Under the pieces are notes generated by a model. The model had not been told where the DNA came from, ran no database searches, and worked only from the letters and a program-made list of their open reading frames with translations. From Candidatus Latescibacterota bacterium (GTDB lineage: Bacteria > Latescibacterota > UBA2968): a DNA stretch of 64,000 nt. Every line of letters starts with the position of its first letter. Within the stretch, counting starts at the first letter, position 1. The translations under genes and the position numbers were made by a program. The DNA lies in assembly GCA_965116885.1 (NCBI GenBank), contig OZ220741.1:3040001-3104000 (forward strand), given 5' to 3'. This document shows positions 15,701 to 45,684 of this stretch, piece by piece.

Positions 15701-15990
15701 ATGTGCAGGGTGAATTGTTCTTCGACATCGGGGGAGCATTTAACCGCGTCAATTGGAGAGACGGATGGGTCTCCAGGGATGGGGGGTTTGAGCTCAATGT
15801 CCCGCAGCACTTTCGCAGCGGATCGAGACATGGACTACCAAAACCTCAAATGGCTGCCGGATACGGGTTTGGCGTGCGGGTAAATTTGGGTTATTTCCTG
15901 TTCAGATACGATCTGGCCTGGCCTACGGATCTCGCCGAAACATACCATCCACACCAGTATTTCTCAATTGATTTCACGGGTTTGTTCTAA
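12721..15990 (+). CDS. Omp85/BamA-family protein with N-terminal zinc metallopeptidase and PD40/TolB-like beta-propeller
   Basis: Signal peptide, 'HHELVH..WIAEGIAEY', repeated WSPDG, 'PLRGA' loop motif, C-terminal Phe. Confidence 0.8.
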   Translation: MARWYRLFARNAIFVLILGVSTSAFGQEYFGKNKVNYSQYAWHYIDSEHFTVYFDKGSLGLAEFVAKEAERSLVHIEKTLKYTMKDRYPIVIYNSHNGFSVSNIISGEQSEFTGGYTEFAQGRVVIPFTGSYGDLQHVIHHELVHAVTIELWTGGGWLGSLVSQTSTLPPLWIAEGIAEYVSRYGWHKEHDNFMRDATITGYVPTIEMMSLSYFAYPGGNSVFYMIEQEYGKDKVASFISSFRTAKTPDKALKASLGFGMKELEEKYQLWLKRQYWNEINLRHTPKEMATNLTEREDRRSSYNLSAALSPQGDKVAYLTDRNGTFDIYLMSAIDGKDLGRLVEGQKSSAFESMFVLRPGFTWSPDGRHIAFAAKSNNKNTLYILEVKNKQIRKRFKFDLDGLFEPTWSPDGEKIAVAGIKDGWSDIYVVDLNDESLTRLTNDPYDERHLDWSPDGTWIAMSSDRPDTHLTFSGGKDFAFGQYDIFLMRTDGSEMRRIVASEDAEDSHPVWGADSKHIAFVSDRTGVGNIYIANVDSTQKIYPITNLLSGAQYIDWSADGKKIVFNAFHKGALDIFVMRDPLAQRKEMADLPRTRFVKRLAGEDEKMFVELQKEKYESRKIAKVEADSTAVDSTAEKTEKKVAQWISDQEALAAAESAPADSTAEIDTTHPVAGSPEMADTGKQGVKNWGEKEFQVKKYKLKFKPELFGAQAGFDTFYGVSSSIVLSMSDVMGDHRATLVTSLNFSLKDSDFLLAYAYLKNRTNYGAQLFHTRFFFFDNTGRLTADRYYGLSGMLERPFNRFARLELSTRFVSVDREEVFTDINNYLYQPGFRGVGRFSSQLIERRRAAIGEVALVGDSALYSLFGAVDGHRYRLNFEGSGVGMEFATFTLDYRKYMRLLNEYTFAIRMSGGTSYGPNSTMFFLGGVNNPVNPTFSTIASVDQSRVFFSSYVWPLRGARLLEMAGDSYVLANVAFRFPLIRQLAMGWPLPFFFQNVQGELFFDIGGAFNRVNWRDGWVSRDGGFELNVPQHFRSGSRHGLPKPQMAAGYGFGVRVNLGYFLFRYDLAWPTDLAETYHPHQYFSIDFTGLF

Positions 15991-23349: not shown

Positions 23350-24201
23350 TTATCGACGTTCACTTTTTTTATAAAAAAGTTTGTTCAGCGGGCTTTTGGG
23401 AGCTGTAAGGTATTTGGCTTCATCGGGCGTCAAGGCTTTGCCAAAAACAGCGATTTCATCGATTTCTCCAGGATATTTGAAATGATTAAATCGCATCACA
23501 AGAGTTTCTATATCCCAGGTCATATTCTGCTGAAGCGGACCTTTGCGCCCTGCTTCTGTGCCATCTATATACAACGCCCATTCTGCATCGGCCTTGCCAC
23601 TGTTAAAGTTGGACCATGTAATCGCGATGTGGTGCCAGTCATTTGCACGCCAATTGACTGGCACAGAAATCACACGAGCAGCGACCACATCGTCGGTAAC
23701 TGGCTGCTCTTTGTTGGGATAACATCCAAACCGAAGTGTGCCATCGGCTTTTTTGAAATCGACAAATACGACTGCATCGTCCCAGGGATATTTTTCACCG
23801 TCTTTTTTCCCAACATGAAAAGGTTCTGGATAATTGTCTTCAAAGCTGGCGATGTCGGCTTTGAGCCAGAATGCAATGCTGCCAGACCACGCGCTGTTTG
23901 CACTGTAGGCGAGGTTGTTTTTTCCGCTGTAATTGAGTGCGCCTGCATTTGGGCTAAAAGCCAAATACCCGTCGGGATTGCCGCCCTGCTTAATGTGGTT
24001 GGTGTTGGCTGTGTCAAAGGTCGCCAACGGATCGCCGAGGCTATCGAGGGCATCCACGCCTTTTTCAAAGTTGGCAAAAAAAAGTATGTGTGCTCGCAAG
24101 CTCTCTTCAATGGCCTTTTCGGGACCACCACAAGCTGTTGCGATCGCCAAAAATATAACGATTAGAGTGCCACGGGATAAATGGGGAAGATGGAACGACA
24201 T
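23350..24201 (-). CDS. LamG/concanavalin A-like jelly-roll lipoprotein
   Basis: Lipobox 'ATAC', 'GSIAFWLK', 'WHHIAITW', 'LYIDG', 'GEIDEIAVF'. Confidence 0.8.
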   Translation of the reverse strand: MSFHLPHLSRGTLIVIFLAIATACGGPEKAIEESLRAHILFFANFEKGVDALDSLGDPLATFDTANTNHIKQGGNPDGYLAFSPNAGALNYSGKNNLAYSANSAWSGSIAFWLKADIASFEDNYPEPFHVGKKDGEKYPWDDAVVFVDFKKADGTLRFGCYPNKEQPVTDDVVAARVISVPVNWRANDWHHIAITWSNFNSGKADAEWALYIDGTEAGRKGPLQQNMTWDIETLVMRFNHFKYPGEIDEIAVFGKALTPDEAKYLTAPKSPLNKLFYKKSERR

Positions 24202-24358
24202 GTGTAAGGTCTCCTTAAAAAGAAATTTGGCGCATTGTTAAGTTAAATGCATAAATTGATATACTCCCAAAATGCGGGTATGTCAATACTAAAATTACGA
24301 GATTGCAAAGATAGCTTAATTACTCGAAAAACCAACTGTGTGTGTCTCTGAAATTGTC

Positions 24359-24387
24359 TTGACATCTCAAAAGTTATTTATTAGCAT
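24359..24387 (+). promoter_or_regulatory. sigma70-like promoter of the giant permease operon
   Basis: TTGACA-17bp-TAGCAT. Confidence 0.55.
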
Positions 24388-24437
24388 AAAAATCCAATTT
24401 TCTCAAAACGTTCGGCATTTTAACAGGAGCCTCCTCG

Positions 24438-27400
24438 ATGCGTAAAATCGGCACAGGTATTCTCTGGATTATCACGATTTTGATGTTGTCTTCAGTGACC
24501 ATTTTTAATCCGGGACAGGTGACGGATTTTTTTGTAACGCTTTTTAATATTAAACCGAGTATTCCCGAACTCAAACCCATTGAAATTTCAGAACGCGATC
24601 GCGAAATTCGATCCATTGCAGAGTCCATTACACAAGAAGATGTGCATCAAATCATTGCCGACCTGTCGGGAATGGGGTCCCGGGTCCCTGGCTATTCGGG
24701 GCATAGGCAGGCTTTTGAATATGTCAAACAGCATTTTGAGCAATTTGGCCTTGAAGATATCGCGGTCGAAGAGCACACGGTAACGGTTCCTATTGACAAA
24801 GGAGCTTCACTCACTTTGACGGATACCGGCGAAGAAATTGCGATCTACGGTTTTTGGCCCAACCATGTACAAACGCCCTCTGTGCCCAGCGCAGGGATTT
24901 CGGGGGCGCTTATTTATGGGGGCAAGGGGGCGTTTGCAGAACTGAATGGCAAAAAGGTCGAAGGTAGCGTTGTCCTGATGGACTTCGATTGTGACCAGGG
25001 CTATTTAAGTCCGCGTATGCTGGGGGCAAAGGCCATTTTATTTTATGACAATGGGCGGGTTACACAGGGTCAGGCTATGGATAAGTTTTTGCCCGTGCCC
25101 GTTGATGTGCCCCGGTTCTGGGTCAAAAAAGACGATGCTTTGCGTTTGCTCGAACTGGCCCAAACGCAATCTCCCGAAGTGCGTTTGACTTCGAAGATGG
25201 ATTGGGAAGAGGTGCCGACCTGGAATATTTTTGCAACTCTTCCAGGGTCCGAAGACTATATCACGGAGCGCGAAGAACGCAAGTGGAAAGACCAGCAGAT
25301 TGTGCTGAGTGCTTTTTACGATGCCATATCCGTTGTGCCGGCTCTCGCGCCGGGTGCTGAAAATGCGTCGGGATTGGCCGCGCTTTTACACACTGCCCGC
25401 GTTTTGAGACAGAATCCGCCCAAATATTCGGTGACCTTTTTGGCAACTGGCTCTCATTTTCAAGGGCTGGCAGGCATCAATGATTTTGTGTATAGGCATT
25501 CGCGCGAAAGCGATCATTTCCGCGATAAGATTCCCGATAGTGTATCGGTGGCCGGTGCTTATCTCGATGGCGAACTTATTCCACGCGACAGCGAAGAGTT
25601 TGAAGAACTCATTCCCGATAGCTATAAAATTGATTTTCGGTTATTTATCGGGTTGGACCTGTCGAGTGAATCCGATCAGTTGGCGAGCTTTTCGCACGGC
25701 ACCTTTAACAACCCAAATTGGCAGACAGACAATTATCTAAATAATCTGCTGGCGCCTTATGCAGACAAATTCGATAAATATATGGCCAAAGTATTTCCGG
25801 GTGAAGAAGTGCGCCATGTCGATGCGATTGCACCGCCAAAACGCACGTGGAAAAATTTTATGCCCATTCGCCTGGGATTTGACAGTGAGGCCGTTACTTT
25901 TGTTGGGAAAGAAGGCATTACTCTGGCGACGCCATCAACTGTGAGGCGTTTTGTCGATACGCCCATTGATCGCGTTGAGAATGTCAATATGGACAATTTG
26001 ACGCGCCAGGTCCAAACGGCGATAGCTGCCATGATGAAAGCGGGTGAAGATCCCGAATTTTTCAGGGTATCCAAGCTCAAACTGCAAGATCGCGGACACA
26101 GTTTGAAAGGGCGCGTATTGTGGTTTGATCGCAATGTCGATTTCGCGTTGCCTCGCGTGCCCGTGCCCGGTGGGGTTGCGACGTACCGGCAGCCGGGCAA
26201 TGTTCACAGTTGTGCGGGAGTGCGGACGCTGATTATTGACAAGACGACAGAAGGTCCCATTTACGATGTTAAATTGGCAAAAAATAGAACTGATGTAGAT
26301 CTAAACTTGTATGGCGACCCGGACAAAGTTAAACAAACCGGAGAGTTTTTCTTTAATATTATGCGAAATCGGTTTACCAATCGCATTTTGGCTTATGATA
26401 TTGACGAAGAGGGGAATATTACGTCGGCACCCGACATGGGTTCTGAGGGCGATAAGAAATTTCCACTGACACAGCGGTATGGCTGGTGGGAAAATGAAAT
26501 GATGACGGTTCTGTTCAAGAGCCGTTCCATCAGTGTTTTTGAAATTATCGATTCGAGCTATTTGTCCGCACTTGATTTTATGACGGTGCTCAATGAAAAC
26601 GATACACAGCCCCTGGAATTTGGTTATACGTATTTGCCTGGGCAAAGCACCAAAGAGGGCGATGTGACGCGCGCTGCTGTGACGTTTGCGCGTGTGGATG
26701 AACACACGGGGGAAGCCGAGCGGTTGAAAGTTTTGATGAGCACGGGCTTGTTTGGTGTTAAGTATTTGTTGATTAATGCGCCCCAGAAATTTTTGGACAA
26801 TCCGATTGATAAACGCGAGGTGAATCCCGATATTCTGGAAGAGGCACGAGGTGAAGGATATGAACCCGGCGTCATTTTCACGCCCTCGTATCAGGCCGCT
26901 AAGGATATGTGGGTGATTGACGATGTGCGAATGAAACAGTTGGCGCAATTTGGTATTGAAAACAATCGTCTCACCCTGTTGCACAACAGCGCGCGCGAGG
27001 CATTGATCGAAGCGCGCCAGCATCTTGAAAATTTGGATTACGAAGGGTTTATGGCCGCATCTCGGCGGGCATGGGGGCTGGAGGCTCGGGGGTATCCCGA
27101 AGTGATGGCGACGGCCAATGATACTGTGCGGGGTATTATTTTTTATTTTATTTTGTTATTGCCGTTTTCATTTTTCTGTGAGCGGTTGTTGATCGGCGCG
27201 TCGAGTATTACTGCGCGATTGAGTTGGTTTGCCGCATTTTTTGTGTTTTTCTTTATCGTTTTGCGCTTTGTCCATCCGGCTTTTCAGTTGAGCAATTCCC
27301 CCTATATTATTTTTCTCGCATTTGTGATTATGGCCCTCGGCGGCGTGGCGATGGTTATTGTGGTGTCTAAGTTTGGCGATGAAGTTCGCAAGATGAAGCA

Positions 27401-29285
27401 GGCGTCTGCAGGAACTTATGAAGCCGATGTTGGACGCATTAGCGCGACGTCGGCCGCGGTTGTACTGGGTATTTCAAATCTGCGAAAGCGCCCCATGCGC
27501 ACGGGATTGACGGCGATTACGCTGACCTTATTGACGTTTACGACATTGTCTTTTACATCGGTGCAGACTTCGTTGAAGTTTTACAAATTGCCCCGCGATA
27601 ACGAGCCGTCGTATCAGGGGGCACTCGTGCGCGACCGATCCTGGCGCGGGATGCAAGAATCCGTGCTCAATTATCTCAATAGTGCCTTTGAAGGTCGCGC
27701 CGATATTGTGCCGCGATCGTGGTATTTGTCACAGGTGCGTGGTGAGCGTGCTTATGTGAATTTTTCTCGTATGACAGAGGCCACTGCCGATATGGGCCCC
27801 AAGGAGATTTACGTCGATTTCGATGTGGGCATTACCACGGGGAAAGACAGTTTTGTCAATGCGCTGTTGGGGCTTACACCAGACGAACCCAAAATTACCG
27901 GGGCTGATCGCTATTTGATGAGTGGGCGATGGTTCGAACCCGGGGAAGAGTTCGTTTGCCTGTTGCCAAATGATCTGGCCGAGCTTGTCGGTATTTTCCC
28001 CGAGGATGCAGGAACGGCTAAGATTGAAATGCAGGGACAAGTTTTTACGGTGATTGGCATTCTCGATTCTGAAATGTTTAACAAGTTCAAAGATTTGGAT
28101 GATGAAAAACTGACTCCTGTTGATACGGTTAAAGAGAAAGACGATTTGGCAGATGCACAGGATCAGGATCCGAGGGTTGTCGCGGCTGCGCCGATTGAAA
28201 CCTTTACTCATTTGGAATCGACCAATGTGCTTGTCGTGCCCTATGAGTATATTCGGGATATCGGGGGTGTATTGGCCTCGGTGGCGATTGCGAATTTTAA
28301 GGATGAGAGCGGGCAGCCTAAGTTGAATTTTGTTCCCGACATCGAAGAGTTTATGGCGCGCGTGTCTTTGACGATGTTTGTGGGCAAGGATGATGGTGTA
28401 ACCGTCTATAGTTCGATTGGTTCAACGTCGCTTTCTGGATTGGGCAATTTGTTTATTCCGATCTTGATTGCGGCACTTATTGTACTCAATACTATGATGG
28501 GTGCTGTGTATGAGCGTTTCCGAGAGATCAGTATTTATTCCTCGGTGGGATTGGCTCCCAATCATATTGCCGCACTTTTCCTCGCGGAGGCTGGCGTATT
28601 TGCCACACTCGGCGCGGTTATGGGATATTTGATTGGACAAGTCCTGGTGCTCGTACTTTACAATGAGGGATTGCTGGGAGGCCTGGAATTAAATTATTCG
28701 TCGCTGTCTGCAATTTCCGCCACGTTGATTGTGATGGCAACGGTATTTCTCTCCGCGCTTTATCCAGCAAAGAAAGCCGCGGATATGGCAGTGCCCGATG
28801 TGACTCGCAAATGGGAATTTCCCGATCCTGATGGCGATCGGTGGGTATTTGATTTTCCCTTTACTGTAGGCGGTGCCGAGGTATTGGGCATGTACTCCTA
28901 TTTGACCCGGGTTTTTGAATCTTATGGCGAGGGATCGGTGGGTGATTTTGTTGCAGATCATGTGAAGTTCTGGTCTGAGGATCACGAGGGAGAACCGCAA
29001 TACAATATTGACCTGACGGCATGGTTGGCGCCTTATGATCTGGGAATTAGCCAGGAAGTGCAGTTAAAAGCCATTCCAACGGGTGAGCACAATATTTATA
29101 AAATTGAAGTGGTGATTAATCGCTTGAGTGGCGATGTGGCGTCCTGGAAACGGATCAATCGCGGGTTTTTGAATGTGTTGAGAAAGCGATTCCTGGTCTG
29201 GCGCACAATTCCGGGCGATATGAAGTTCAATTATGCAGAAGACGGACGCCGGGTTTTGTCTGGCGAAGTCGCGGCAATAGCATAA
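24438..29285 (+). CDS. 1615-aa membrane protein: degenerate M28 peptidase/PA ectodomain + TM bundle + FtsX/MacB-type permease
   Basis: 'SRVPGYSG..AFEYV', PA-like 'LIYGGKG', 'SAFYD', 'PGAENASG'. FtsX hallmarks 'NLRKRPMRTGLT' and 'VYERFREISIYSSVG'. Confidence 0.8.
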   Translation: MRKIGTGILWIITILMLSSVTIFNPGQVTDFFVTLFNIKPSIPELKPIEISERDREIRSIAESITQEDVHQIIADLSGMGSRVPGYSGHRQAFEYVKQHFEQFGLEDIAVEEHTVTVPIDKGASLTLTDTGEEIAIYGFWPNHVQTPSVPSAGISGALIYGGKGAFAELNGKKVEGSVVLMDFDCDQGYLSPRMLGAKAILFYDNGRVTQGQAMDKFLPVPVDVPRFWVKKDDALRLLELAQTQSPEVRLTSKMDWEEVPTWNIFATLPGSEDYITEREERKWKDQQIVLSAFYDAISVVPALAPGAENASGLAALLHTARVLRQNPPKYSVTFLATGSHFQGLAGINDFVYRHSRESDHFRDKIPDSVSVAGAYLDGELIPRDSEEFEELIPDSYKIDFRLFIGLDLSSESDQLASFSHGTFNNPNWQTDNYLNNLLAPYADKFDKYMAKVFPGEEVRHVDAIAPPKRTWKNFMPIRLGFDSEAVTFVGKEGITLATPSTVRRFVDTPIDRVENVNMDNLTRQVQTAIAAMMKAGEDPEFFRVSKLKLQDRGHSLKGRVLWFDRNVDFALPRVPVPGGVATYRQPGNVHSCAGVRTLIIDKTTEGPIYDVKLAKNRTDVDLNLYGDPDKVKQTGEFFFNIMRNRFTNRILAYDIDEEGNITSAPDMGSEGDKKFPLTQRYGWWENEMMTVLFKSRSISVFEIIDSSYLSALDFMTVLNENDTQPLEFGYTYLPGQSTKEGDVTRAAVTFARVDEHTGEAERLKVLMSTGLFGVKYLLINAPQKFLDNPIDKREVNPDILEEARGEGYEPGVIFTPSYQAAKDMWVIDDVRMKQLAQFGIENNRLTLLHNSAREALIEARQHLENLDYEGFMAASRRAWGLEARGYPEVMATANDTVRGIIFYFILLLPFSFFCERLLIGASSITARLSWFAAFFVFFFIVLRFVHPAFQLSNSPYIIFLAFVIMALGGVAMVIVVSKFGDEVRKMKQASAGTYEADVGRISATSAAVVLGISNLRKRPMRTGLTAITLTLLTFTTLSFTSVQTSLKFYKLPRDNEPSYQGALVRDRSWRGMQESVLNYLNSAFEGRADIVPRSWYLSQVRGERAYVNFSRMTEATADMGPKEIYVDFDVGITTGKDSFVNALLGLTPDEPKITGADRYLMSGRWFEPGEEFVCLLPNDLAELVGIFPEDAGTAKIEMQGQVFTVIGILDSEMFNKFKDLDDEKLTPVDTVKEKDDLADAQDQDPRVVAAAPIETFTHLESTNVLVVPYEYIRDIGGVLASVAIANFKDESGQPKLNFVPDIEEFMARVSLTMFVGKDDGVTVYSSIGSTSLSGLGNLFIPILIAALIVLNTMMGAVYERFREISIYSSVGLAPNHIAALFLAEAGVFATLGAVMGYLIGQVLVLVLYNEGLLGGLELNYSSLSAISATLIVMATVFLSALYPAKKAADMAVPDVTRKWEFPDPDGDRWVFDFPFTVGGAEVLGMYSYLTRVFESYGEGSVGDFVADHVKFWSEDHEGEPQYNIDLTAWLAPYDLGISQEVQLKAIPTGEHNIYKIEVVINRLSGDVASWKRINRGFLNVLRKRFLVWRTIPGDMKFNYAEDGRRVLSGEVAAIA

Positions 29286-29322
29286 CGCGCAGATTTTGTG
29301 AATTTCCTTCTGGGAGGCAATT

Positions 29323-31380
29323 TTGGCAACCGATGAACCAAGAGATACAGAAGAAACAAAAGAGGATCTGACAGAATACGAACAGATTATGCCAGAGGAC
29401 GCGCCCTTTGAAGATGGCTTTGGCTTGAAGACGATATGGGCGACCATGTTCGTTGGGATTGTCATGTTGCCGGGGGCGATTTATTTGGGCCTGGTGACCG
29501 GGCAAAGCATGGCCGGCGCGTCTGAGTGGGTGACGATTATTCTCTTTTTAGAGATTGCCAAGCGCTCTTTTGTTCGGCTCAAGACACAGGAAATTTTGAT
29601 TATCTATTGGGTCGCTGCAGGGCTGTTGGGCATTGGGGTAAAACTCGGCTCCGGCGCGCATCTATACGGTGGACCTTTTGGAGGGTTGATCTGGGATCAG
29701 TATTTGATTCAGTCACCCGCGGCAAAAGGTTTGGATAGTTATATCCCAAATTGGGTGACGCCGCCTCTGGATTCGCCAGTATATGCCGAGCGCACGTTTG
29801 TGCATACCGACTGGATTTTGCCGGTGTTGATTCTGTTTCTGGCCATGATCATCAATCAGACTGCGCGGCTGTCCTTTGGGTATGTGATGTTTCGCATTAC
29901 CAGCGATATCGAACAATTGCCTTTTCCGCTGGAACCCGTTCACGCGAGAGGTGTTACGGCACTGGCTGAGACATCGGCCAAAGCCGAGGGTTGGCGGTGG
30001 CGCGTGTTTAGCACGGGAACGTGTATTGGTCTGGTATGGGGATTGCTCTATGTGGTTGTGCCCACGTTGTCGGGCATTTTTCTTACGGAGACAGTTCAGG
30101 TTCTGCCGATTCCGTTTATCGATTTTACCGCCGAAGTAAAAACCATATTGCCCGCTGCTGTGTTTGGCATAGGAACGGATTTGGGGCATTTATTGATCGG
30201 TTTTGTCCTGCCGTTTTACGTGGTGGTGGGGTCGTTTATCGGTGCTGTGCTCGCCAATCTGGTGATTAATCCAGTGCTTTATCTTCACACAGATGTCTTG
30301 AGCCGATGGGCACCAGGGATGACGGCGATTCCCGCAAGTATTTCCAATCGTTTTGACTTCTGGTTGAGTTTTGGGATCGGCACGTCATTCGTGATCGCGT
30401 TCACCGGATTTTATATGGTGGGTAAAACACTGTTAGAACAGCGCAAGATTCAGAAGGAAACAGGACATCACTCGGTAAAAATTAGTATGGAGGATTTGCC
30501 CGAAGGGCGAGGGGATATACCGATGAAGTGGCCCCTTGTTTTGTGGGTCATGGCTTCTTTGGCAGCCATTGGGCTGTGCCAGTGGCTCGTACCGGAATTT
30601 CAATGGTACTGGCTGGTTTTCTTCGCGTTTATTTATACGCCTATTTCGTCTTATATCGGTGCACGAATGATCGGTCTTACGGGCAGTCCTTATGGGGCGA
30701 GCATTCCGTATATTCGGGAAGCGGCCATTTTTCTGTCGGGGTATAAAGGTGTGGCGGTGTGGTTTGCTCCCATTCCTCTGCACGACCACGGGCTGGCCGT
30801 GCGACAGTTTAAGCAACTGGAATTGACCAAAACGAAGATTGGCAGTTATATCAAAATGGTGGTGATTACGACTTTTGTGATTTTCATCTGCAGCTTTATG
30901 TTCTATGAGTTTATCTGGCGTTTGGGTCCCATTCCATCTGCGACATATCCCTACGTGCAGTTGTTCTGGCCATTTGAAGCTACGATGCAAACTATGTGGC
31001 TCAAATCGACTTTGCCACCTGGAGAAGTGCAAGGTGCTGCGGGTCTGGAACTCCTGACAGATATTATCAAGGCAGAATATATAGGTGTTGGTTTCGTTAC
31101 AGGGGGACTTCTCTATCTGGTACTGGTCGCAGCCAAGGTTCCCGTGCTGGCATTTTTCGGTTTTGTGAATGGTCTGGCGCAATGGCCGCATTTTGTCATT
31201 TTGAATTTTGCCGGGGCGATGCTGGGGCGATATCATTTTGCCAAGCGATTTGGCGAGTCCAAATGGAACGCTTACGCGCCTATTTTATTAGCGGGTTATT
31301 CCTGCGGCATGGGGCTTATTGGCATGACGTCAATTGCCGTGGCTCTGATCTCCAAAGCCGTGTCTCAAGTGGTTTTCTAA
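29323..31380 (+). CDS. OPT (oligopeptide transporter)-like polytopic membrane protein
   Basis: About 16 hydrophobic segments, 'EQLPFP' motif. TTG start after GGAGG. Confidence 0.65.
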   Translation: MATDEPRDTEETKEDLTEYEQIMPEDAPFEDGFGLKTIWATMFVGIVMLPGAIYLGLVTGQSMAGASEWVTIILFLEIAKRSFVRLKTQEILIIYWVAAGLLGIGVKLGSGAHLYGGPFGGLIWDQYLIQSPAAKGLDSYIPNWVTPPLDSPVYAERTFVHTDWILPVLILFLAMIINQTARLSFGYVMFRITSDIEQLPFPLEPVHARGVTALAETSAKAEGWRWRVFSTGTCIGLVWGLLYVVVPTLSGIFLTETVQVLPIPFIDFTAEVKTILPAAVFGIGTDLGHLLIGFVLPFYVVVGSFIGAVLANLVINPVLYLHTDVLSRWAPGMTAIPASISNRFDFWLSFGIGTSFVIAFTGFYMVGKTLLEQRKIQKETGHHSVKISMEDLPEGRGDIPMKWPLVLWVMASLAAIGLCQWLVPEFQWYWLVFFAFIYTPISSYIGARMIGLTGSPYGASIPYIREAAIFLSGYKGVAVWFAPIPLHDHGLAVRQFKQLELTKTKIGSYIKMVVITTFVIFICSFMFYEFIWRLGPIPSATYPYVQLFWPFEATMQTMWLKSTLPPGEVQGAAGLELLTDIIKAEYIGVGFVTGGLLYLVLVAAKVPVLAFFGFVNGLAQWPHFVILNFAGAMLGRYHFAKRFGESKWNAYAPILLAGYSCGMGLIGMTSIAVALISKAVSQVVF

Positions 31381-31487
31381 AATAAAATGATGGGTGGAAC
31401 TTTTATCCGGGCATGTGTCGTCTAATCTGTTGCGATTTATGCCCGGATTTTTATAGGCATTTTTTAACTTTTTCAAAGGAGCAGATT

Positions 31488-31991
31488 ATGCAGAGATTTC
31501 GACTCTTCGGTTTTTTGGCAGTGGCAATGGTTATGGTTGCGTCCTGCGATTTGTGGGCACAGCCGCAAAGAGGCGGTCAAGGTCAACGCGGTCAAGGTCA
31601 ACGCGGCGGCGTTCAGGTGCAGCGTTTTTTGCCGGTTGAACAGGCGCTGACCTATCTGGCGTTTAACGAGAATGTCGCCCTGAGCGATGAGCAACTCGTC
31701 AAGGTGCGCGCATCACTCAAGGGGATTTATGCAAAACGCCAGGAGTTGCAAAGAAGCCTGCGCGGAAGCAACGACCAGCAGGCGGCCATGCAGAAAGTGC
31801 GCGCTCTGCGAATGGAAATGATGCAGGGCCTGACAGCCATTCTCAATGAGAACCAGACAAAGGTATTTCAAGAACAGATGCAGCGGATGGGGCAGCGCGG
31901 GCAACGCGGTCAGCGCGGCGGGCAAGGTGGTCGTGGTGGGCAAGGTGGTCGTGGCGGGCAAGGTGGTCGTGGCGGTGGTGGCGGTGAGTAA
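31488..31991 (+). CDS. secreted Spy/CpxP(LTXXQ)-like protein with Gly/Gln/Arg repeats
   Basis: Signal peptide, 'LSDEQ' and 'ILNENQ' motifs, GQRG/GGQGGR tails. Confidence 0.7.
   Translation: MQRFRLFGFLAVAMVMVASCDLWAQPQRGGQGQRGQGQRGGVQVQRFLPVEQALTYLAFNENVALSDEQLVKVRASLKGIYAKRQELQRSLRGSNDQQAAMQKVRALRMEMMQGLTAILNENQTKVFQEQMQRMGQRGQRGQRGGQGGRGGQGGRGGQGGRGGGGGE
31917..31970 (+). repeat. coding 18-bp tandem repeat x3 (GGQGGR)
   Basis: ggYgggcaaggtggtcgt x3. Confidence 0.9.
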
Positions 31992-32023
31992 AGACTCTAC
32001 GTCTGTTCAGTGTTAGAGATGTC

Positions 32024-32063
32024 AAAACGCGGGTTTCTTTGAAGAAGCCCGCGTTTGTTTTTT
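32024..32063 (+). terminator. intrinsic terminator
   Basis: aaacgcgggtttctt/aagaagcccgcgttt stem plus T tract. Confidence 0.8.
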
Positions 32064-32127
32064 CCGGTGTGCTTGTTTATCACAAAAAAATGGGTTACAT
32101 TATCTCCCATTGCAATGGGAGGGTTTT

Positions 32128-33483
32128 GTGGTACCTGAGTCTATTAAACATCTCAAGCGGCCTTTTTCATTTGCGGTTGTGAGTGATACGCATTTTGTGA
32201 CGCGAGATTTTATTGGGCAGGCATTTGACGCGACAAGGCCGCTCAGCACTGAGGGGTATGTGGAAAATGTAACCTATTCGCTCGCGCCAATGATGGATGC
32301 TCTGCGCCATCTCAAACCGGACTTTATAGTTTTGACCGGCGATGTGGCCGAACCCCCGTTGGATCCAGAATGTCACCGCGAGAATCTCAAGGCTGCGCTG
32401 GATTTTTTTTCTACATGCGATATTCCCCTGATCGTCGCTCGTGGCAATCACGATGGTACTTCGGCTTTTGATGAGGTTGTGGGGCCGCGTATTGCACAGT
32501 TTTTAGGTGAGGCACCCAGGGCGCATTATTTTTCATTTGAGGTGGATGGTTGCCAGTTTATTATTCTGGATACGCCATTTTGGAATACTGAGCAATGTCA
32601 GTGGCTCGATGCCGTATTAAAAGAAAATGCTTATGCACCGTCCTTTTTATTGGGGCATCATCCTATATGGCCGGTAGCCCGCGCTTTTTTTTATAATCGC
32701 GATTTTCAGACGGATATGGTCGATCTTCTGTCTCGGCACGCGATTGATGCCTATTTTTGCGGGCATTCACACAATCAAAGCATTGTGTTGCACCGCACGC
32801 CCTATTTGCCGGTGTTGCAGTGTATGGGTGCTCTGGTCGGGTTGTCTGATACGCCGCCACTTCCGCTCAACCGAGTTCAGGCCCTTTTACCCACGTCCGA
32901 TGATCTTATGGCTGTTTGGCCCGGATATATTGAAAATACGGCTCCGGGGTGGTTTATGGGATATGTTGCACAGGGCCGGGCGCGTGTGGAATGGCATCAT
33001 ATTAACCGCGGGGCCGAAGCCCTGGTGCGCTGGTTTCGCCCTGGAGACATTCAGACGTTTTGGACAATGGATCCCGCGCCACCAGCTCAACTCATTGAAG
33101 CAAATTTAGGGCGTATTCGCCAGGGGATCCTCCGTTTTTGTGCCTGGGATAGTATGGGAGATGCGCGCGTATTTCTCAATGGATATGAGATTGGTCTTTT
33201 GCCGCGTGCAGATAATTTTACGCCCAGTCGTCTGTCTTTACCACCCAACGCGCTCGCTTGTTTACAGATGGAAAATAAGGTGCGTATTGAACCAGCTGAG
33301 GGAAGTGAGATAACGCTTGGCAATCTGGTTCTCGAAGTGGTATTGCCCGGTGGTCGTTATGTGCGGTCGCTGGTTTTCGAAGATATTTATACGTGGTCTG
33401 ACCGGTGGGAGGGGTATGAATATGAGACGTTGCAAAAGATGAAACCGGGACGACCGTTATCAACGGTGTTGTCTTTCAGGTGA
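32128..33483 (+). CDS. calcineurin-like metallophosphoesterase with C-terminal extension
   Basis: 'SDTH', 'TGD', 'GNHD', 'HHP', 'GHSH'. Confidence 0.85.
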
Positions 33484-36455: not shown

Positions 36456-37604
36456 GTGAAAATTGATGCCGCGGAAATTCGATATGTCGAGTTGCCACTG
36501 ATTTCGCCATGGCGCACGGCTTATGGCGAGGATGCGACGATTCATTCGGTGATGGTTAAACTCTCGGGCGGGGGGACCTCTGCCTGGGGTGAGGCTACGC
36601 CGTTTTACGCGCCGACTTATTCACCCGAGTCGGCCCGATCTGTTTATGAAACGGCGCGGGAATTTTTCTTGCCGTATATCGTGGGGGAGCAGATAGAGAC
36701 AGCGGCGGAACTGATGGCGCGGATTGCGGTGTTTAAGGGCAATCCCTTTGCCAAAGCGGCTGTGGAGACTGCGTGGTGGGCATTGGATAGTAAGTTGAAG
36801 GGCGTACCGCTCTGGCAGTTACTGGGCGCGACTGATCCTACGGTGGCATGTGGGGCTGATTTTGGTGTGCAGGATACGATTGATGAGCTTCTGTCGCTGA
36901 TCCAGAGTGCTGTGGATGTGGGGTATCCTCGGATAAAGCTGAAGGTACGACACGGATGGGATATCGAGATGCTCAAAGCCGTGCGTTCGGCTTTTCCCGA
37001 TCCCGTGATTCATGTGGATTGCAATTCGGGGTATGATTTGAACGTGGATTTTGATACACTCAAGGGATTTGATCAGTTCAATTTGGCGATGATTGAACAG
37101 CCATTGGATCATCTGGATCTGATCGAGCACGCGGAGTTGCAAAGCCAAATCGAGACGCCTGTTTGTTTGGATGAGTCGGTCAAACGTCCGCGGGATTTTG
37201 AACTCGCCCTGAAAATTGGCGCATGTCGCGTGATCAATGTGAAACCCGGTCGCGTGGGAGGCTTGTTAAACGCTGTGAAAATTCACGATATGGCGCGCGA
37301 TGCGGGCATAGATGCGTGGGTGGGCGGGATGCTGGAGAGCGGTGTTGGCGCAGGGATTTGTGCGGCGTTGGGTACGTTGCCGGGATTTAACTATCCGGCA
37401 GATGTGTTTCCATCCCGCAAGTTCTATGTTGAGGATATTACAAATCGGTGGATTGAGCAGGATGAGAACTGCAATGTGGTACTGGATGAGACACCCGGCG
37501 TTGGGTTCGATCCAATTCCCGAGCGTCTGGAGAAGGTGACGGTTATGAAGGCGCAGCGTCTGGAGAAGGTGACGGTTATTTTTCCTCAATCGGCTCTACG
37601 GTGA
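36456..37604 (+). CDS. menC: o-succinylbenzoate synthase / N-succinylamino acid racemase (enolase superfamily)
   Basis: 'KLK', 'VDCN', 'IEQP', 'CLDES', 'NVKPGRVGG', 'GGMLES'. No other men genes nearby, so an NSAR role is plausible. Confidence 0.8.
   Translation: MKIDAAEIRYVELPLISPWRTAYGEDATIHSVMVKLSGGGTSAWGEATPFYAPTYSPESARSVYETAREFFLPYIVGEQIETAAELMARIAVFKGNPFAKAAVETAWWALDSKLKGVPLWQLLGATDPTVACGADFGVQDTIDELLSLIQSAVDVGYPRIKLKVRHGWDIEMLKAVRSAFPDPVIHVDCNSGYDLNVDFDTLKGFDQFNLAMIEQPLDHLDLIEHAELQSQIETPVCLDESVKRPRDFELALKIGACRVINVKPGRVGGLLNAVKIHDMARDAGIDAWVGGMLESGVGAGICAALGTLPGFNYPADVFPSRKFYVEDITNRWIEQDENCNVVLDETPGVGFDPIPERLEKVTVMKAQRLEKVTVIFPQSALR
37522..37579 (+). repeat. 25-bp direct duplication at the menC 3' end
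   Basis: agcgtctggagaaggtgacggttat at 37522-37546 and 37555-37579. Confidence 0.95.
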
Positions 37605-38451
37605 CAGATACGGTGAGCGCGTGTTGACCGCCGCCCAGGACCACGCCTTTGAGAGGGGTGACGTCGGCAAAGTCACGGCCCCAGGATACGGTGACGTGCC
37701 GGTCATCGGGCATGAGATTGTTGGTCGGATCAAAGTCGATCCAGCCGTGATTGGGCAGGTAAACAGAGAACCAGGCATGGGAGGCATCTGCGCCAATCAG
37801 GTAATCTGTTCCAGGGGAGGGCAGGGTCTCGAGATAGCCGCTGATATAGCGTGCGGCCAGACCCATAGCGCGGAGGCAACCGATGGCCAGGTGGGCAAAG
37901 TCCTGGCACACGCCTTTGCGGTGTTTGAATACATCGGATAATGGCGTGGATATGGTGGTGAATCCAGGTACGTATTCAAAGTCGTTGTAGATGCGTTGGG
38001 TGAGGTCGCTAACCGCTTCTATAAAGGGACGGTCTTTAGAAAATGACGGTTCTGCATATCTTGTCAACTCGGGGGCGGTAGATACTTTGGGGGAGTCGAG
38101 TACAAATTGGCGCACTGAAAGAAGGTTGGGATCGGTTGTGGTTTTGAGGATGTGATACACAGTTTCCCAGGGCATATCGCTGGTCAATTGGGTTTGCGAT
38201 ACGATATGCACATCGCTTTCTGCTGTGACTGAGAGGATATTGTGGGGTTGTTCGATGGAAAAATAGGCGGTGCGATTGCCAAAAAAATCTTTTCGCTCGC
38301 GAAAAGATGCTGGCTGTGGATTGATGGTGATGTGGCTATTCAAGCATGTCTGATTGAAAAAACTGCGCGGGCTCAATCGGGCTTGATTGTGAGACAGGCT
38401 CACGGTCTCTGCATATTCGTAGTGGCTCTGATGTGTGATGCGATAATTCAT
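37576..38451 (-). CDS. bacterial transglutaminase-like protein (N-terminal domain + core)
   Basis: Catalytic triad in 'GVCQDFAH', 'SHAW', 'FDPTN'; also 'GRDFADVTP'. Confidence 0.93.
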   Translation of the reverse strand: MNYRITHQSHYEYAETVSLSHNQARLSPRSFFNQTCLNSHITINPQPASFRERKDFFGNRTAYFSIEQPHNILSVTAESDVHIVSQTQLTSDMPWETVYHILKTTTDPNLLSVRQFVLDSPKVSTAPELTRYAEPSFSKDRPFIEAVSDLTQRIYNDFEYVPGFTTISTPLSDVFKHRKGVCQDFAHLAIGCLRAMGLAARYISGYLETLPSPGTDYLIGADASHAWFSVYLPNHGWIDFDPTNNLMPDDRHVTVSWGRDFADVTPLKGVVLGGGQHALTVSVTVEPIEEK

Positions 38452-39941
38452 GTGCCAAAGTTCCGGTGTGGGAGACCGTCAATCACCCAGGTGTCTTTGC
38501 TGTGTACAAACGTATGCGTAGGAACGACAAAATTGTCGCGTTCGGGTGCGCTGCGCGTGAGGCCTCCAGGCATTACCGAGTATGTATTTTGGTGGGAGAC
38601 TGCAAAGGCTGTGAGGGTGGTATAGCGAGATTCGAGATGCCCGTTGATCAGGGAAGGCGCTGTTGCAAAGCTGACTTGTTCCTGGCCTGCGTAACGGGTG
38701 GGATTTGCCCTGATGCGATCGCGCCAGACTTCGCGCTCGGCGCGGCTGAGCAAGGCACCGAAGACGCGGGGAATAGCTGATTGCTGATCAATTGGACAGA
38801 GAACCAGACTGTCGAGATGGTCGAGTACGTAGTTCATTTCTCGCGCTTGTCCGCACCACCAGGTGGCTACCGAGGGCAGGATGAGGTCTTCGTCCAGCAA
38901 GTGTCGCGCAATGCCGGGCAAAAAAGGCATCAAGCCCGGATTTTCGAGTACGCTACTGCCCAGAGGATTGGCAATGGCAACGTGCCCATTTCGCACGGCA
39001 TCGAGTAGCCCGGCAACGCCGAGTAGCGATTCTTCGTAGAGTTCCAATGGGTCGCAAAAATCGTCATTGATGCGGCGCAAAATGATATCAACGGGATACA
39101 AGCCATCGATGGATTTGAGCCACGCGTGCCTATCGCGCACGATGAGGTTATCGCCTTGCACAAGGGTATAACCCAGATAAGCTGAGAGATATGCATGCTC
39201 AAAATAGGTGGCGTTAAAAGGCCCTGGGGTCAGTACGACGATCCGGGGGTTTTCTTTGTTGTGAGGGGCAATTTCAGACAGGCCAGATTGAAAGGTGCGA
39301 AAAAAATCGGCCAGACGCCGCACATTGCAGTCGTTGAACAAGGTGGGCATAATGCGCGACATCGCGGTTCTGTTTTCGAGCGCGTACCCCAGGCCCGAAG
39401 GTGCCTGTGTGTGGTCGTACAAAACCCACATTTGTCCATCGGGTCCTCGCGCGAGATTGGCGGCATAGATGCGCAATTGATGTTCAGCAGGCAGAAAGAC
39501 ATCTTTGCAGGATCTCAAAAAACCCGCGTGATTGTAGATGGGTTCAAAGGGTAAAAGGCCCTCTCGGATGAGTGTTTGGGGACCGTAGATGTCTTTGAGC
39601 ACAAGGTTGAGCAATTCGGCGCGTTGGGATACTCCTCGCGCTATATGGGTCCAGTCATTTGCCTGAAGCAGGAGGGGGATAGGATCGAGTTCCCGAGGGC
39701 GATGCAAGCCATCGGGATTGTCGGGTACGTTATACGTAACGCCGTTTTCGCGCAGCAATAGTCGCGCTTCCTGGTCGCGGCGTGCCAGTTCTTTGCTGCC
39801 CATGCGTTCTATTGCTGAAAAAAAGGGATGCCAATGGGCGCGCACCCCGTCTTTTTGATCCCACATTTCGTCGTAAGAACCGGGGGCAGGGGCGTACCCT
39901 TCGGGCATAATATCGGCAATTTCAGGTGGGGTTTTGGACAA
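38448..39941 (-). CDS. circularly permuted type 2 ATP-grasp protein, divergent copy
   Basis: 'TQAPSGLGYALENR', 'TYFEHAYL', 'MPGGLTR', 'SKDTWV'. Confidence 0.88.
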   Translation of the reverse strand: MSKTPPEIADIMPEGYAPAPGSYDEMWDQKDGVRAHWHPFFSAIERMGSKELARRDQEARLLLRENGVTYNVPDNPDGLHRPRELDPIPLLLQANDWTHIARGVSQRAELLNLVLKDIYGPQTLIREGLLPFEPIYNHAGFLRSCKDVFLPAEHQLRIYAANLARGPDGQMWVLYDHTQAPSGLGYALENRTAMSRIMPTLFNDCNVRRLADFFRTFQSGLSEIAPHNKENPRIVVLTPGPFNATYFEHAYLSAYLGYTLVQGDNLIVRDRHAWLKSIDGLYPVDIILRRINDDFCDPLELYEESLLGVAGLLDAVRNGHVAIANPLGSSVLENPGLMPFLPGIARHLLDEDLILPSVATWWCGQAREMNYVLDHLDSLVLCPIDQQSAIPRVFGALLSRAEREVWRDRIRANPTRYAGQEQVSFATAPSLINGHLESRYTTLTAFAVSHQNTYSVMPGGLTRSAPERDNFVVPTHTFVHSKDTWVIDGLPHRNFGT

Positions 39942-39966
39942 AGCTGGATCCTACGATAAAAAACGC

Positions 39967-40033
39967 GAATAGACGAACCCCGCTCCACCACCCAAGTCAG
40001 TGCGAACTCCATTCGTTGATTCGCAGATTCGTC
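39967..40033. repeat. intergenic cassette bounded by inverted CGAAT/ATTCG short repeats
   Basis: gcgaatagacgaa ... attcgttgattcgcagattcgtc. Same unit as at 51258. Confidence 0.5.
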
Positions 40034-40037
40034 GGTT

Positions 40038-40997
40038 TCAGACGGTCGTGGAGGAGGGCGAAGTTGCGAAGAAGGTTTCGAAAATTGCGTTGTCAAGCTG
40101 GTTGAGTCGCGTTTGAAATGCGTCGAGGTATTCGTGCAGGCCCTGCGAAATGATTTCATCGATACTGGTGTAATCCAGTTCGGCGAGCAGGCGCCCCAGT
40201 ACTTGTTCGGATGTGTTTTGGAAAGAGCCTTCGGGTGTACCCGATATGGTGCGCAACGATTGATTGGCCCCGAAAAGACAGTATCGAATGGCGCGGGGAA
40301 ATTCGCGATTTAAGATCAAGAAATTGACCACATTGTGGGGTTCGATAGGGCCATATTGTTTGCGATACATTTCGAGGGCACTGGCAGATTTGAGCAATGC
40401 CGCCCACTGGATATCGTCAAAGGGCGTGCCCACATCATCAACTTCGGGTAATAAAAAAAAGTATTTGACATCGAGGATGCGCGAGGTTTTATCGGCGCGT
40501 TCTAAGTCCCGACCCAGTCGAGCAAATTGCCATGCTTCGTTGTGAGACATGGTGTTGCGCTGAATGCCTGTGAACAGGTGACTGGCCATAATGATATCTG
40601 TAAAGTAGGCATGGGGAGCATCCTGTGCCTGGGGTTTGTCGATGTTTTGCACCTGCAAGTAGAATTTGTTAATCTGTTCCCACATTTCCGTTGAGATAAT
40701 CTCTCGGATAGAACGCGCATTTTCGCGGGCGTTTTGCAAGCAGGAGAGAATGGAGTTGGGATTTACGGGGCTAAATGTCAGGAAGTCGATGACGTTGGCT
40801 TGATTGTCCGTTGCGTAGTTTTCGTAGAACAGGTGCTGATCACCTGTGGTGAGCACAAGCGGTTCCCACTGCCCTTTGGCTTCAACGGGTAAGTCGAGCA
40901 TCAAGTGGCAATTGACCTCGATAAAGCGGGCGACATTTTCGGCGCGTTCAAGATAACGGCTCATCCAGTAAATGGATTCTGCTGCGCGGCTTAACAT
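40038..40997 (-). CDS. alpha-E domain protein (DUF403)
   Basis: 'MLSRAAESIYWMSRYLERAEN', 'ARENAR', 'LERAD', 'FPRA'. Confidence 0.93.
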   Translation of the reverse strand: MLSRAAESIYWMSRYLERAENVARFIEVNCHLMLDLPVEAKGQWEPLVLTTGDQHLFYENYATDNQANVIDFLTFSPVNPNSILSCLQNARENARSIREIISTEMWEQINKFYLQVQNIDKPQAQDAPHAYFTDIIMASHLFTGIQRNTMSHNEAWQFARLGRDLERADKTSRILDVKYFFLLPEVDDVGTPFDDIQWAALLKSASALEMYRKQYGPIEPHNVVNFLILNREFPRAIRYCLFGANQSLRTISGTPEGSFQNTSEQVLGRLLAELDYTSIDEIISQGLHEYLDAFQTRLNQLDNAIFETFFATSPSSTTV

Positions 40998-41012
40998 AAT
41001 ATGACTCGTGCG

Positions 41013-42494
41013 TTAGTGCGTTTGTGAAAGGTACCTGGACGGGACAAATGGATCGTCACTGTCGTATAATACCCAGGTGTCTTTGCTACCCCCGCCTTGC
41101 GAAGAGTTGACGACCAGAGATCCTTTTTTTAGTGCCACGCGCGTGAGTCCTCCGGGCAAGACATAAATATCTTCGCCATTGTAGAGGACATAGGGCCGCA
41201 AATCGACATGCCTGCCTTCAAAGTGGTCATCTACCAGAATAGGGCTTCGCGAGAGTGCTATGGTGGGCTGTGCAATATAATTGCGTGGGTTTTGGGTTAT
41301 GCGGTTGGCAAAGTCTTCGCGTTCGGATCGTGTGGAATTTACGCCAATGAGCATGCCGTATCCACCCGACTCATTGGCGGCTTTGACCACAAGGGTGTCC
41401 AGGTTTTCGAGTACATGCTGGCGCTGGTCGTCTTCCCAACAAACATAAGTGGGCACATTGGGCAGCAGGATGTCTTCGTTGAGATAATATTTGATGATCT
41501 GCGGCACATAAGCATATACGACCTTGTCGTCGGCAACACCTGTGCCGGGCGCATTCGCAATGGCGACCTGACCATTTTTATAGACCTCCATGAGTCCGGG
41601 TACGCCCAACATAGAATCGGGGCGAAAGACTGCTGGATCGAGAAATTCGGCATCAATGCGCCGATAAATAACGTCGATGCGTTGAAATCCGCGGGTCGTT
41701 CGCATTGCCACAACACCATCGGCAACGACGAGGTCTCGTCCTTCGACCAATTCGACACCCATTTGTTGGGCGAGAAAGGCATGCTCAAAATAGGCCGAGT
41801 TGTAGATGCCGGGTGTGAGTAAAACGACCGTTGGCGATGTGACATGGGAAGGAGATAGAGAACGCAATGTGTTGAGCAATTGAGCGGGATAGTCATCGAC
41901 GTGTCGCACATGAGAAGCTTCAAATACTTCCGGGAATATGCGTTTGAGAACCTCGCGATTTTCAAGCACATAAGACACGCCCGAAGGACAGCGCAGGTTG
42001 TCTTCGAGGACGTAAAACTGACCGTCTTTATCGCGCACGAGGTCAATGCCGGAAATGTGACACCACACATCTTTGGGCGGCGAAAGGCCAATGCAGGGTT
42101 TCAGGAATTCTTTAGCTGTATCAATGACGTAGCGGGGAATGATGCCGTCTTTGAGGATTTTTTGATCGGCGTAGATGTCGCAGAGAAACAGATTGAGGGC
42201 CTGGATGCGCTGCACGAGGCCCTTTTCAATGTATGTCCAATCGGTATGAGAAATGATACGCGGAATGATGTCAAAGGGAAAAATTTTTTCAACGCCGGCT
42301 TCGCTGCCATACACGTTGAACGTGATGCCCATGTTCATCAAGGCCAGTTCGGCGGCTTGATGGCGTTTTTGGAGTTCGTCTTTGGAGAGTTCGCCGAGTT
42401 TTTCGAGGAGTACTCGCGCGCCGGGATGGGGACTGTTCGGAGATTCAAAGAGTTCGTCGTAAAATCCACCGAGTTCATAAGATGAGAAGTCCAT
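41013..42494 (-). CDS. circularly permuted type 2 ATP-grasp protein
   Basis: '[13 protein letters not shown]', 'YFEH', 'SGGYGM', '[13 protein letters not shown]'. Confidence 0.94.
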
Positions 42495-44597: not shown

Positions 44598-44632
44598 GAC
44601 AGGAGCCAGGTGAAGGCAGTGGGCTGAACATG

Positions 44633-44665: not shown

Positions 44666-44675
44666 GTATGCATCC

Positions 44676-45674: not shown

Positions 45675-45684
45675 AGTGTCCTTC

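Follow-up and report, generated by a model that had tools for sequence, protein, structure and literature searches.

What a giant membrane protein with a peptidase-like head and a transporter-type base does beside the gene of a multi-pass permease, and whether the two belong to one system, is the question raised by a locus of a sponge-associated Latescibacterota bacterium. The locus lies in a stretch of 64,000 nucleotides (nt) that was analysed as a whole (hereafter the window; assembly GCA_965116885.1, contig OZ220741.1, positions 3,040,001 to 3,104,000), part of one 5.56-Mb contig. Its core consists of two adjacent open reading frames (ORFs) on the plus strand, separated by 37 nt in the ORF list: gene 1 codes for the giant protein, in which an M28-like ectodomain is fused to an FtsX-type module, and gene 2 for the permease. 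An earlier note on the window, made from its sequence alone, had read gene 1 as a catalytically dead peptidase receptor paired with an OPT-like transporter, and both ORFs were recovered at the coordinates and spacing that it gave. Here we report that the pairing of gene 1 with permeases of the OPT superfamily recurs across Latescibacterota, and that the M28-like metal site of gene 1 is, judging from alignments, remodelled and not decayed.

The relatives of gene 1, named 'M28 family peptidase' or 'FtsX-like permease' in the databases, number 587 at E<=0.001 among 7998 scored candidates, and a further search gave 398 relatives in species-representative genomes. The loci of the best 80 of these 398 were compared, and their permease types were called by hidden Markov models. 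An OPT-superfamily gene lay within 1 kb on the same strand in 75 of the 80, being of the gene-2 type in 58, of the DUF6785/DUF6784 type in 16 and of both types in one. Among the others, a gene-2 type permease lies 4.5 kb off in L046 and a DUF6785 gene 2.6 kb off in L050, L054 is a 2.9-kb contig ending in a partial gene 2, L072 starts inside gene 1, and L051 makes up the number. At loci with 47-58% identity the window's other neighbours are all lost and the permease pairing is kept; Era, LamG-like, metallophosphoesterase and DUF255 neighbours, syntenic among close orthologues only, were accordingly rejected as parts of the system. On the gene 1 tree, all 16 loci flanked by DUF6785 fall into a single clade (support 100). 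As kin share labels, this retention of a partner type per paralog lineage shows persistence, not co-evolution.

The strongest single item for the pairing is a set of natural fusions, in which gene 1 continues into a DUF6785/DUF6784 permease in one frame: P0382 (2120 residues), L143:5790-12158 (2123 residues) and L144:3671-9970 (2100 residues), the two genomic ORFs (L143 and L144) belonging to two genera. The window's own genome holds three gene 1 paralogs, each with an OPT-superfamily gene nearby. Paralog A, the window copy, has gene 2 directly downstream; paralog C is overlapped upstream by a DUF6785/6784 gene and followed by an 814-residue permease of the gene-2 type (hmmsearch E 2.3e-193); and upstream of paralog B, on its strand and at a distance of 5.9 kb, comes a DUF6785 gene, separated from it by two TPR genes. 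A 563-residue ORF after paralog B was dismissed as a permease, being an over-extended frame over a lipoprotein-like gene with hhalign probabilities of <=0.2% to three permease profiles.

Across the phylum, 142 of 153 genomes are matched by the gene 1 profile, at 1 to 7 matches per genome, and exactly these are matched by the gene 2 profile as well; the 11 genomes that lack both are all from family f10 (G009-G019). The conserved tie to an OPT-like permease that the earlier note had proposed is thus borne out by loci, genomes and fusions, and the gene 1 homologues without gene 2, rather than standing unlinked to any such gene, form a clade flanked by DUF6785/DUF6784. As a separate observation, a canonical M28 peptidase is present in all 8 sampled genomes of family f10. 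The pair is also present in RNA libraries: the gene 1/gene 2 junction is spanned by sponge metatranscriptome contigs of two studies, one a 7.5-kb contig of a 95%-identical relative lying at 24426-31900 over all three ORFs of the locus (X9 record 26), the other at 26753-29802 (X3 record 20). Neighbouring contigs of run X9 end at 24185 and start at 32146, a gap that we do not use as a transcript boundary.

The fused architecture described by the earlier note, with an N-terminal anchor, an M28-type ectodomain, an FtsX module and a C-terminal domain, was recovered in full (Table 1), the anchor being preceded by a short basic N-terminus. Pfam places Peptidase_M28 (PF04389) at residues 282-441 (33.7 bits, cut-off 21.3) and FtsX (PF02687) at residues 1339-1449 (49 bits, cut-off 25.5). 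Among 27 family members M28 was matched in 26 (E<=0.05) and PA in 23, so that the PA insert claimed for the ectodomain holds for the family and is weak in the window protein itself. Hydropathy marks helices at residues 4-22, 896-914, 924-942, 955-977, 1332-1350, 1377-1407 and 1423-1441. The module consists of a basic linker and the first transmembrane helix (TM1) at 978-1042, a periplasmic domain at 1043-1331 and TM2-4 at 1332-1449; TM1 itself (~1022-1042), with the basic stretch before it, is Thr-rich and falls below the hydropathy threshold, by which the 'about 4 TMs' that had been counted before the module resolve into the three extra helices plus TM1. Solved relatives of the C-terminal part are MacB (9.1e-8), YtrF (3.8e-7) and LolC (1.9e-4). 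MacB_PCD (PF12704) found no match in the window protein, in which a 289-residue outer stretch occupies the expected place between TM1 and TM2, and was matched in the own-genome paralog B (E 2.1e-6), several listed homologues, P0382 and P0276. On the established topology of MacB, the head, the second outer region and the MacB-type domain are predicted to be periplasmic and the last 166 residues cytoplasmic.

The head profile found as solved relatives the PA-M28 aminopeptidase 2ek8 (1.5e-12), YwaD (6hc6; 3.1e-8), the transferrin receptor (2.4e-6), the Vibrio aminopeptidase (3.9e-6 to 1.4e-4) and nicalin (7.5e-5); the Pfam Nicastrin model was weakly touched by one of the 27 family members. The second outer region contains many invariant residues; two weak CarboxypepD_reg matches among the 27 members apart, it matched no Pfam family, and its family profile found no solved relative. 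Mean pairwise identity is 64-72% in the membrane and cytoplasmic parts (65.5% in the three extra helices, 22 homologues) and 52-54% in the periplasmic parts, a contrast that fits a constant, possibly docking, core with diverging binding surfaces.

The C-terminal domain serves as a marker of the family. A profile of 22 sequences, searched against 1.84 billion representatives, gave 1550 matches at E<=0.001 and 1339 at <=1e-10 (clusters at 50% identity); a search of the ESM Atlas with the domain gave no usable match. In nearly all of 150 listed matches the domain lies within ~20 residues of the protein end, the exceptions including the fusion P0382 and P0306, P0379 and P0323, with longer tails or an internal copy. 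Its hosts are mostly of 1450-1900 residues, some of up to 3053, and short matches resemble gene fragments; 89 of 90 listed matches of >=1400 residues share the same ectodomain-plus-membrane architecture. Larger family members include P0244, P0245, P0248 and P0276. Three members of 2769-3053 residues carry N-terminal extensions of 1100-1250 residues with Big_5 domains, and the outer part of P0276 (2451 residues) includes LysM and an NMB0315-like domain, the LysM hinting at cell-wall glycans. The window protein and its three closest relatives, alone among the aligned sequences, have an acidic insertion of ~32 residues (residues ~378-409, 25569-25664) before the conserved GLDLSS strand of the M28-like core.

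The metal site was mapped by alignments to 2ek8, 6hc6/YwaD and 1amp, and by a comparison of profiles (hhalign) with six canonical M28 proteins from Latescibacterota (probability 93.2%, E 3e-7, 185 columns). All the motifs quoted by the earlier note (SAFYD, PGAENASG, GSHFQGL, GFDSE, VDTP) are in the gene 1 sequence, and its statement that most zinc and catalytic positions are changed held in this three-way mapping, save that it had overlooked D407, the sole unchanged one of the five zinc ligands. The first His ligand is replaced by F293 (Y in most relatives; F, Y or L overall), the bridging Asp by E308, a conservative change, the catalytic general-base Glu by H340, the Glu ligand by F341 (H in two own paralogs) and the last His ligand by D507, with D482-S483 in place of the SDH motif. 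Two marks of M28 membership, the full set of five co-catalytic zinc ligands (His, Asp, Glu, Asp/Glu, His) and the general-base Glu beside the Glu ligand, were thus not found.

The homologue alignment by which the earlier note had proposed to look for conserved loss of ligands shows the replacements themselves to be fixed: D295, E308, H340, D407 and D507-T-P-x-D511, together with H354, R356, E484 and R503, do not vary among 27 sequences whose identity falls as low as 36%. This invariance indicates that the two-zinc aminopeptidase site is gone and that the pocket is under strong constraint. With E308, H340, D407 and D507 rebuilt and frozen in this way, 'catalytically dead' proved too strong a description. 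The frozen Glu-His-Asp-Asp set reads as a putative binding site that could hold one metal or a cationic ligand, although the head may even have acquired a different catalysis.

Gene 2 is, on its profile relationships, a distant permease of the OPT superfamily, and we do not class it as a member of the OPT family. It has 1592 relatives at E<=0.001 among 8000 scored candidates, named 'peptide transporter' by NCBI and with a precomputed PF03169 assignment on 9 of 120 listed. A six-frame genome search with PF03169.20 reached gene 2 at 35.1 bits (cut-off 25.8, E 7.1e-9), covering model positions 134-413 only, and the nearest Atlas clusters in a language-model search are named 'peptide transporter', with PF03169 on 15-33% of their members; the clusters resembling gene 2 bear the labels Lentisphaerota, Armatimonadota and Planctomycetota. 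In hhalign comparisons the gene 2 family aligned end to end with eight canonical OPT proteins of the phylum (77.5%, E 1.9e-5, 523 columns) and with the 40 DUF6785 proteins of its own genome (92.8%, E 3.9e-7, 575 columns), and DUF6785 aligned with OPT (82.5%, E 9.8e-6, 555 columns), whereas five reversed-sequence controls gave at most 1.2% (E 0.045-0.3). The DUF6785/DUF6784 permeases are by the same comparison distant OPT relatives, and an ERLPFP-like motif near residue 200 is shared. Gene 2 matched no NCBIfam model and neither of the Pfam models of DUF6785/DUF6784 (PF20581/PF20580). Of 101 phylum genomes sampled, 8 have canonical OPT genes; the window's own genome has none.

The DUF6785/DUF6784 permease genes are expanded to 40 copies in that genome. 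Their recurrent neighbours are sulfatases (9), TPR proteins (11) and a TonB-type receptor with a PorV-like protein, together with enolase-superfamily and GFO/IDH/MocA enzymes and FG-GAP/ASPIC proteins, which suggests loci of nutrient uptake or nutrient use. A search for 'DUF6785' found no literature.

We give even odds to the reading that genes 1 and 2 form two parts of one inner-membrane module, with gene 1 as an accessory bearing a binding head and gene 2 as the carrier. In it the gene 2 product would be the secondary permease, and the two proteins would be in physical contact. Gene 1 would supply an accessory subunit, built on a four-helix base of the MacB/FtsX type with three extra helices, that holds above the membrane a periplasmic assembly of PA/M28-like head, second outer region and MacB-type domain. 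The head, through its Glu-His-Asp-Asp site, would bind a ligand or a single metal; the assembly would bind and perhaps trim the substrate and hand it to the permease, by loading or by gating, possibly via MacB-style movements transmitted through the membrane. Import as the direction of transport, the kind of substrate and the source of power are likewise inferences within this reading.

Several observations weigh against this reading. Pfam hmmscan gave no OPT match for gene 2 or any of 32 family members, and neither single-sequence nor profile searches found a solved relative of gene 2; the OPT likeness is accordingly drawn from a lenient genome search and moderate profile-profile scores, and the 'OPT-like' of the earlier note stands as a distant superfamily relation, the scores falling short of what family membership would need. 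The shared absence of gene 1, gene 2, the DUF6785 genes and a small FtsX protein discussed below is confined to the single family f10, so that their co-occurrence amounts to one event, and it was rejected as independent support. The fusions are of the DUF6785 type only; no longer protein that contains gene 2 turned up at E<=1e-20, which is weak evidence. Of the 40 DUF6785 genes of the own genome, only a single one is adjacent to a gene 1 paralog and a second is 5.9 kb away from a different paralog, which implies that permeases of the superfamily work without an adjacent gene 1. Contigs from RNA libraries may contain DNA, and a single transcript is not provable from a contig. Finally, the loop between TM2 and TM3 of gene 1, which in MacB-type transporters docks the ATPase, is invariant, and this points to a partner ATPase or to some other fixed contact in the cytoplasm.

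That loop is one of the points in favour of an ATP-powered module, which we regard as rather unlikely, and in which the FtsX part of gene 1 would pair, in the fashion of LolC and LolE, with a small FtsX of four helices. The power would come from a LolD/MacB/FtsE-like ATPase present in two copies, and ATP-driven movements of the periplasmic assembly would gate or feed the permease or pull something out of the membrane. As the earlier note had stated, no ATP-binding cassette (ABC) ATPase gene lies in the gene 1/gene 2 operon. The neighbourhood survey that it had proposed for both kinds of partner returned the OPT-superfamily gene in most loci, but a small-FtsX/ATPase pair in only five of the 80 (L047, L052, L056, L060, L067), where it lies 2-2.4 kb downstream of gene 2; in the other 75 none was found within 10 kb in the fetched flanks. 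The gene order in the five is DUF6785, TPR protein, gene 1, gene 2, a 293-residue protein, a PqqD-like protein, a 228-residue FtsX-only protein and the ABC ATPase, which is LolD/MacB/FtsE-like. The own genome has counterparts that are likewise adjacent to each other, beside sugar-nucleotide genes at C1:385-1847 (minus strand): a 223-residue FtsX-only protein that lacks a periplasmic domain and an ATPase of the LolD/MacB/FtsE-like kind, 55.7% and 78.5% identical, respectively, to those of the five loci. This pair would be common to all paralogs. Its small FtsX is encoded once per genome in 140 of the 153 phylum genomes and, like genes 1 and 2, is found in none of the 11 of family f10, and type VII ABC systems work with periplasmic partners that include a hydrolase, according to PMC12646458. 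Yet the five pair-bearing loci belong to one gene 1 clade and have housekeeping genes (MgsA, Ddl) downstream of the pair, so that the adjacency may be lineage synteny, the co-occurrence is again the one event in family f10, and both the ATPase and the small FtsX score below every NCBIfam cut-off. An ATPase acting in trans, with the C1:385-1847 pair as candidate motor, is possible, and we offer it as a lead and not as a finding. The window itself contains, at 3384-7366, a Lol-type system with a LolA-like protein, two MacB_PCD/FtsX permeases and an ABC ATPase in one operon, to which the nearest ATPase gene of the window (6578-7366) belongs; this operon was rejected as the missing motor, there being no evidence for the role and the system being complete in itself.

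The frozen site raises a different alternative, namely that the head is an active enzyme with a single-metal site of Glu308, His340, Asp407 and Asp507, which would cut a periplasmic polymer whose products gene 2 imports; the substrate could be a peptide, peptidoglycan or another envelope or dietary substrate. The four residues stand, invariant, at canonical ligand or base positions, and such invariance, which extends to D295, H354, R356, E484 and R503, exceeds the needs of a mere scaffold, although it is equally consistent with a binding site. The LysM and NMB0315-like domains of P0276 point to glycan or peptidoglycan contact in that variant. On the other hand, of the three ligands that each zinc has in the canonical site, two have been lost or replaced by another kind of residue, and a His takes the place of the general-base Glu. 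Among solved chains, the profile of the core alone scores best with an aminopeptidase variant (5.2e-7), closely followed by the pseudo-peptidase nicalin (1.4e-6), and the transferrin receptor is also among the profile matches. We hold an active enzyme to be unlikely. Both this and the ATP-powered alternative are compatible with the pairing, and they differ in energy source and chemistry. In eukaryotes, nicalin and nicastrin are M28-like pseudo-peptidases that serve membrane-protein machines, and the rank of nicalin among the best solved matches of the core would also suit a gene 1 that stands outside the transport cycle and serves the biogenesis, stability or quality control of large OPT-fold permeases. 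The three gene 1 copies of the own genome, set against two permeases of the gene-2 type and 40 DUF6785, would fit such a common helper, but one-to-one adjacency, clade-specific partner type and fusions suit a stoichiometric subunit better, and we hold this explanation to be highly improbable.

A design that joins primary and secondary transport is a more daring extension of the two-part module, and we put it forward only tentatively, as doubtful: a MacB-type mechanotransducer with a peptidase-like receptor, powered by the common small-FtsX/ATPase motor, would dock on OPT-fold carriers and gate or load them. Each gene 1 paralog would then serve a different carrier, of the gene-2 or the DUF6785 type.

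Gene 1 shares with the type VII ABC permeases (MacB-MacA-TolC, LolCDE-LolA, FtsEX-EnvC, YbbAP-TesA) the three-helix C-terminal domain of FtsX and the basic stretch and TM1 before a large periplasmic domain. A hydrolase-type periplasmic part also occurs in FtsEX-EnvC and in YbbAP-TesA, a type VII ABC system with a periplasmic hydrolase partner (PMC12646458). Unlike in these systems, the hydrolase-like part of gene 1 is covalently fused and its canonical site rebuilt, three extra helices and a family-specific C-terminal domain are added, and the operon contains no ATPase gene, so that the cognate ATPase by which such permeases are recognised is missing from it. The constant partner of gene 1 is a permease of the secondary-carrier type, and the abstract of PMC12646458 mentions none such. 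A weak match to ADOP (TIGR03434; residues 1317-1452, 19.4 bits against a cut-off of 622.3) points to another group of FtsX-type permeases, 'orphan' by their NCBI family name and, to our knowledge, usually without an adjacent ATPase gene; unlike gene 1, an ADOP protein contains two FtsX units and lacks a peptidase-like head.

With the PA-M28 aminopeptidases of Aneurinibacillus (2ek8) and Bacillus subtilis (YwaD, 6hc6) the head has in common the PA insert inside the M28 core, and with these and the Vibrio enzyme (1amp) the framework motifs xxYD, PGAxN, the xxGLxG strand, the NLD-type strand and xTPxD; it differs from them in keeping one Asp ligand, with the bridging Asp turned into Glu and the others replaced. 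Like the transferrin receptor, nicalin and nicastrin, it is a membrane-anchored PA/M28-like ectodomain without the two-zinc site, but it is bacterial, fused to a transporter-type membrane module, and invariant in its replaced residues. Gene 2 resembles the OPT proteins (PF03169, oligopeptide/yellow-stripe-like) and DUF6785/DUF6784 in its similar length, its multiple membrane passes and its end-to-end colinear profiles, and differs from them in that gene 2 and 31 relatives had no Pfam match by hmmscan. Literature searches of main texts found no published description of the gene 1/gene 2 module, none among the papers listed that joins type VII ABC or FtsX with peptidase M28, and none joining at least three of the four terms FtsX, M28, oligopeptide transporter and Latescibacteria; the terms sought for the module are absent from the sponge Latescibacterota paper PMC12993501.

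The family is common, its C-terminal domain marking at least 1339 clusters at 50% identity, and it reaches most Latescibacterota genomes. If the two proteins do form one machine, MacB/FtsX mechanotransmission, a principle of ATP-driven efflux, lipoprotein release and cell-wall control, would come to include joint work with a secondary carrier, the permease branch of the gene-2 type and DUF6785, with its sulfatase-rich loci, would gain a first functional handle, and a bacterial case would be added to the peptidase folds turned receptors. If the joint primary and secondary design were true, it would amount to a hitherto undescribed mode of transport and would stand as a hallmark of envelope physiology in Latescibacterota. 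The module is of interest to specialists in transporters and in the bacterial envelope.

Around the two genes, the expression signals are those listed in Table 1. The sigma70 promoter claimed by the earlier note corresponds to a promoter-like site in the 236-nt gap between gene 1 and the divergent upstream gene, but sites of this kind are not enriched in the region (16 found against 10.8 +/- 2.9 in shuffles), which leaves it as a lead by position only. Ribosome-site-like sequences precede both starts, AGGAG 8 nt before the ATG of gene 1 and GGGAGG 6-7 nt before the TTG of gene 2. The third ORF codes for a small exported protein with Q/R/G-rich repeats at both ends, in which we take, by eye, a lipobox-like signal and an LTXXQ-like likeness to be present; it matched no Pfam or NCBIfam family and occurs in 39 of the 80 loci, every one in the close gene 1 clade. 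The hairpin behind it is the strongest terminator-like site within 24100-32200.

Table 1. Features of the gene 1/gene 2 locus, in window coordinates
Feature	Position	Strand	Description and basis
Gene 1	24438..29285	+	ATG start, 1615 residues; M28-like/FtsX giant membrane protein; ORF and Pfam
N-terminal signal-anchor helix	24447..24503	+	residues 4-22; hydropathy scan
PA/M28-like head	24621..26072	+	residues 62-545; Pfam, family profile against solved structures
PA insert	24933-25148	+	residues ~166-237; Pfam, weak in the window protein (E 0.016)
Remodelled metal-site positions	25314..25958	+	F293, D295, E308, H340, F341, D407, D507; mapped to M28 ligands
Second outer region	26073..27122	+	residues 546-895; no known family
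Three extra membrane helices	27123..27368	+	residues 896-977; hydropathy scan
MacB/FtsX-type module (one)	27369..28784	+	residues 978-1449; Pfam FtsX, solved relatives
C-terminal domain	28785..29282	+	residues 1450-1615; family-specific; family-profile search
Gene 2	29323..31380	+	TTG start, 685 residues; predicted multi-pass OPT-superfamily permease
Promoter-like TTGACA-17-TAGCAT	24359..24387	+	10/12 matches, ~50 nt 5' of the gene 1 start; consensus scan
Third ORF	31413..31991	+	192 residues as listed, likely start Met26 at 31488; translation
Terminator-like hairpin	32025..32056	+	14-bp stem and T run, 3' of the third ORF; consensus scan

Elsewhere in the window, 12652-15990 codes for a 1112-residue protein with a Peptidase_MA-like domain, PD40 beta-propeller repeats and an Omp85-type barrel, and 37576-42494 (minus strand) for two circularly permuted ATP-grasp proteins, an Alpha-E protein and a transglutaminase-like protein. 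The GC skew changes sign at ~44000-48000, being positive from 1 to ~46 kb and negative thereafter, with the peak of the cumulative skew at the switch, which could mark a replication origin or terminus, or merely a change in gene orientation.

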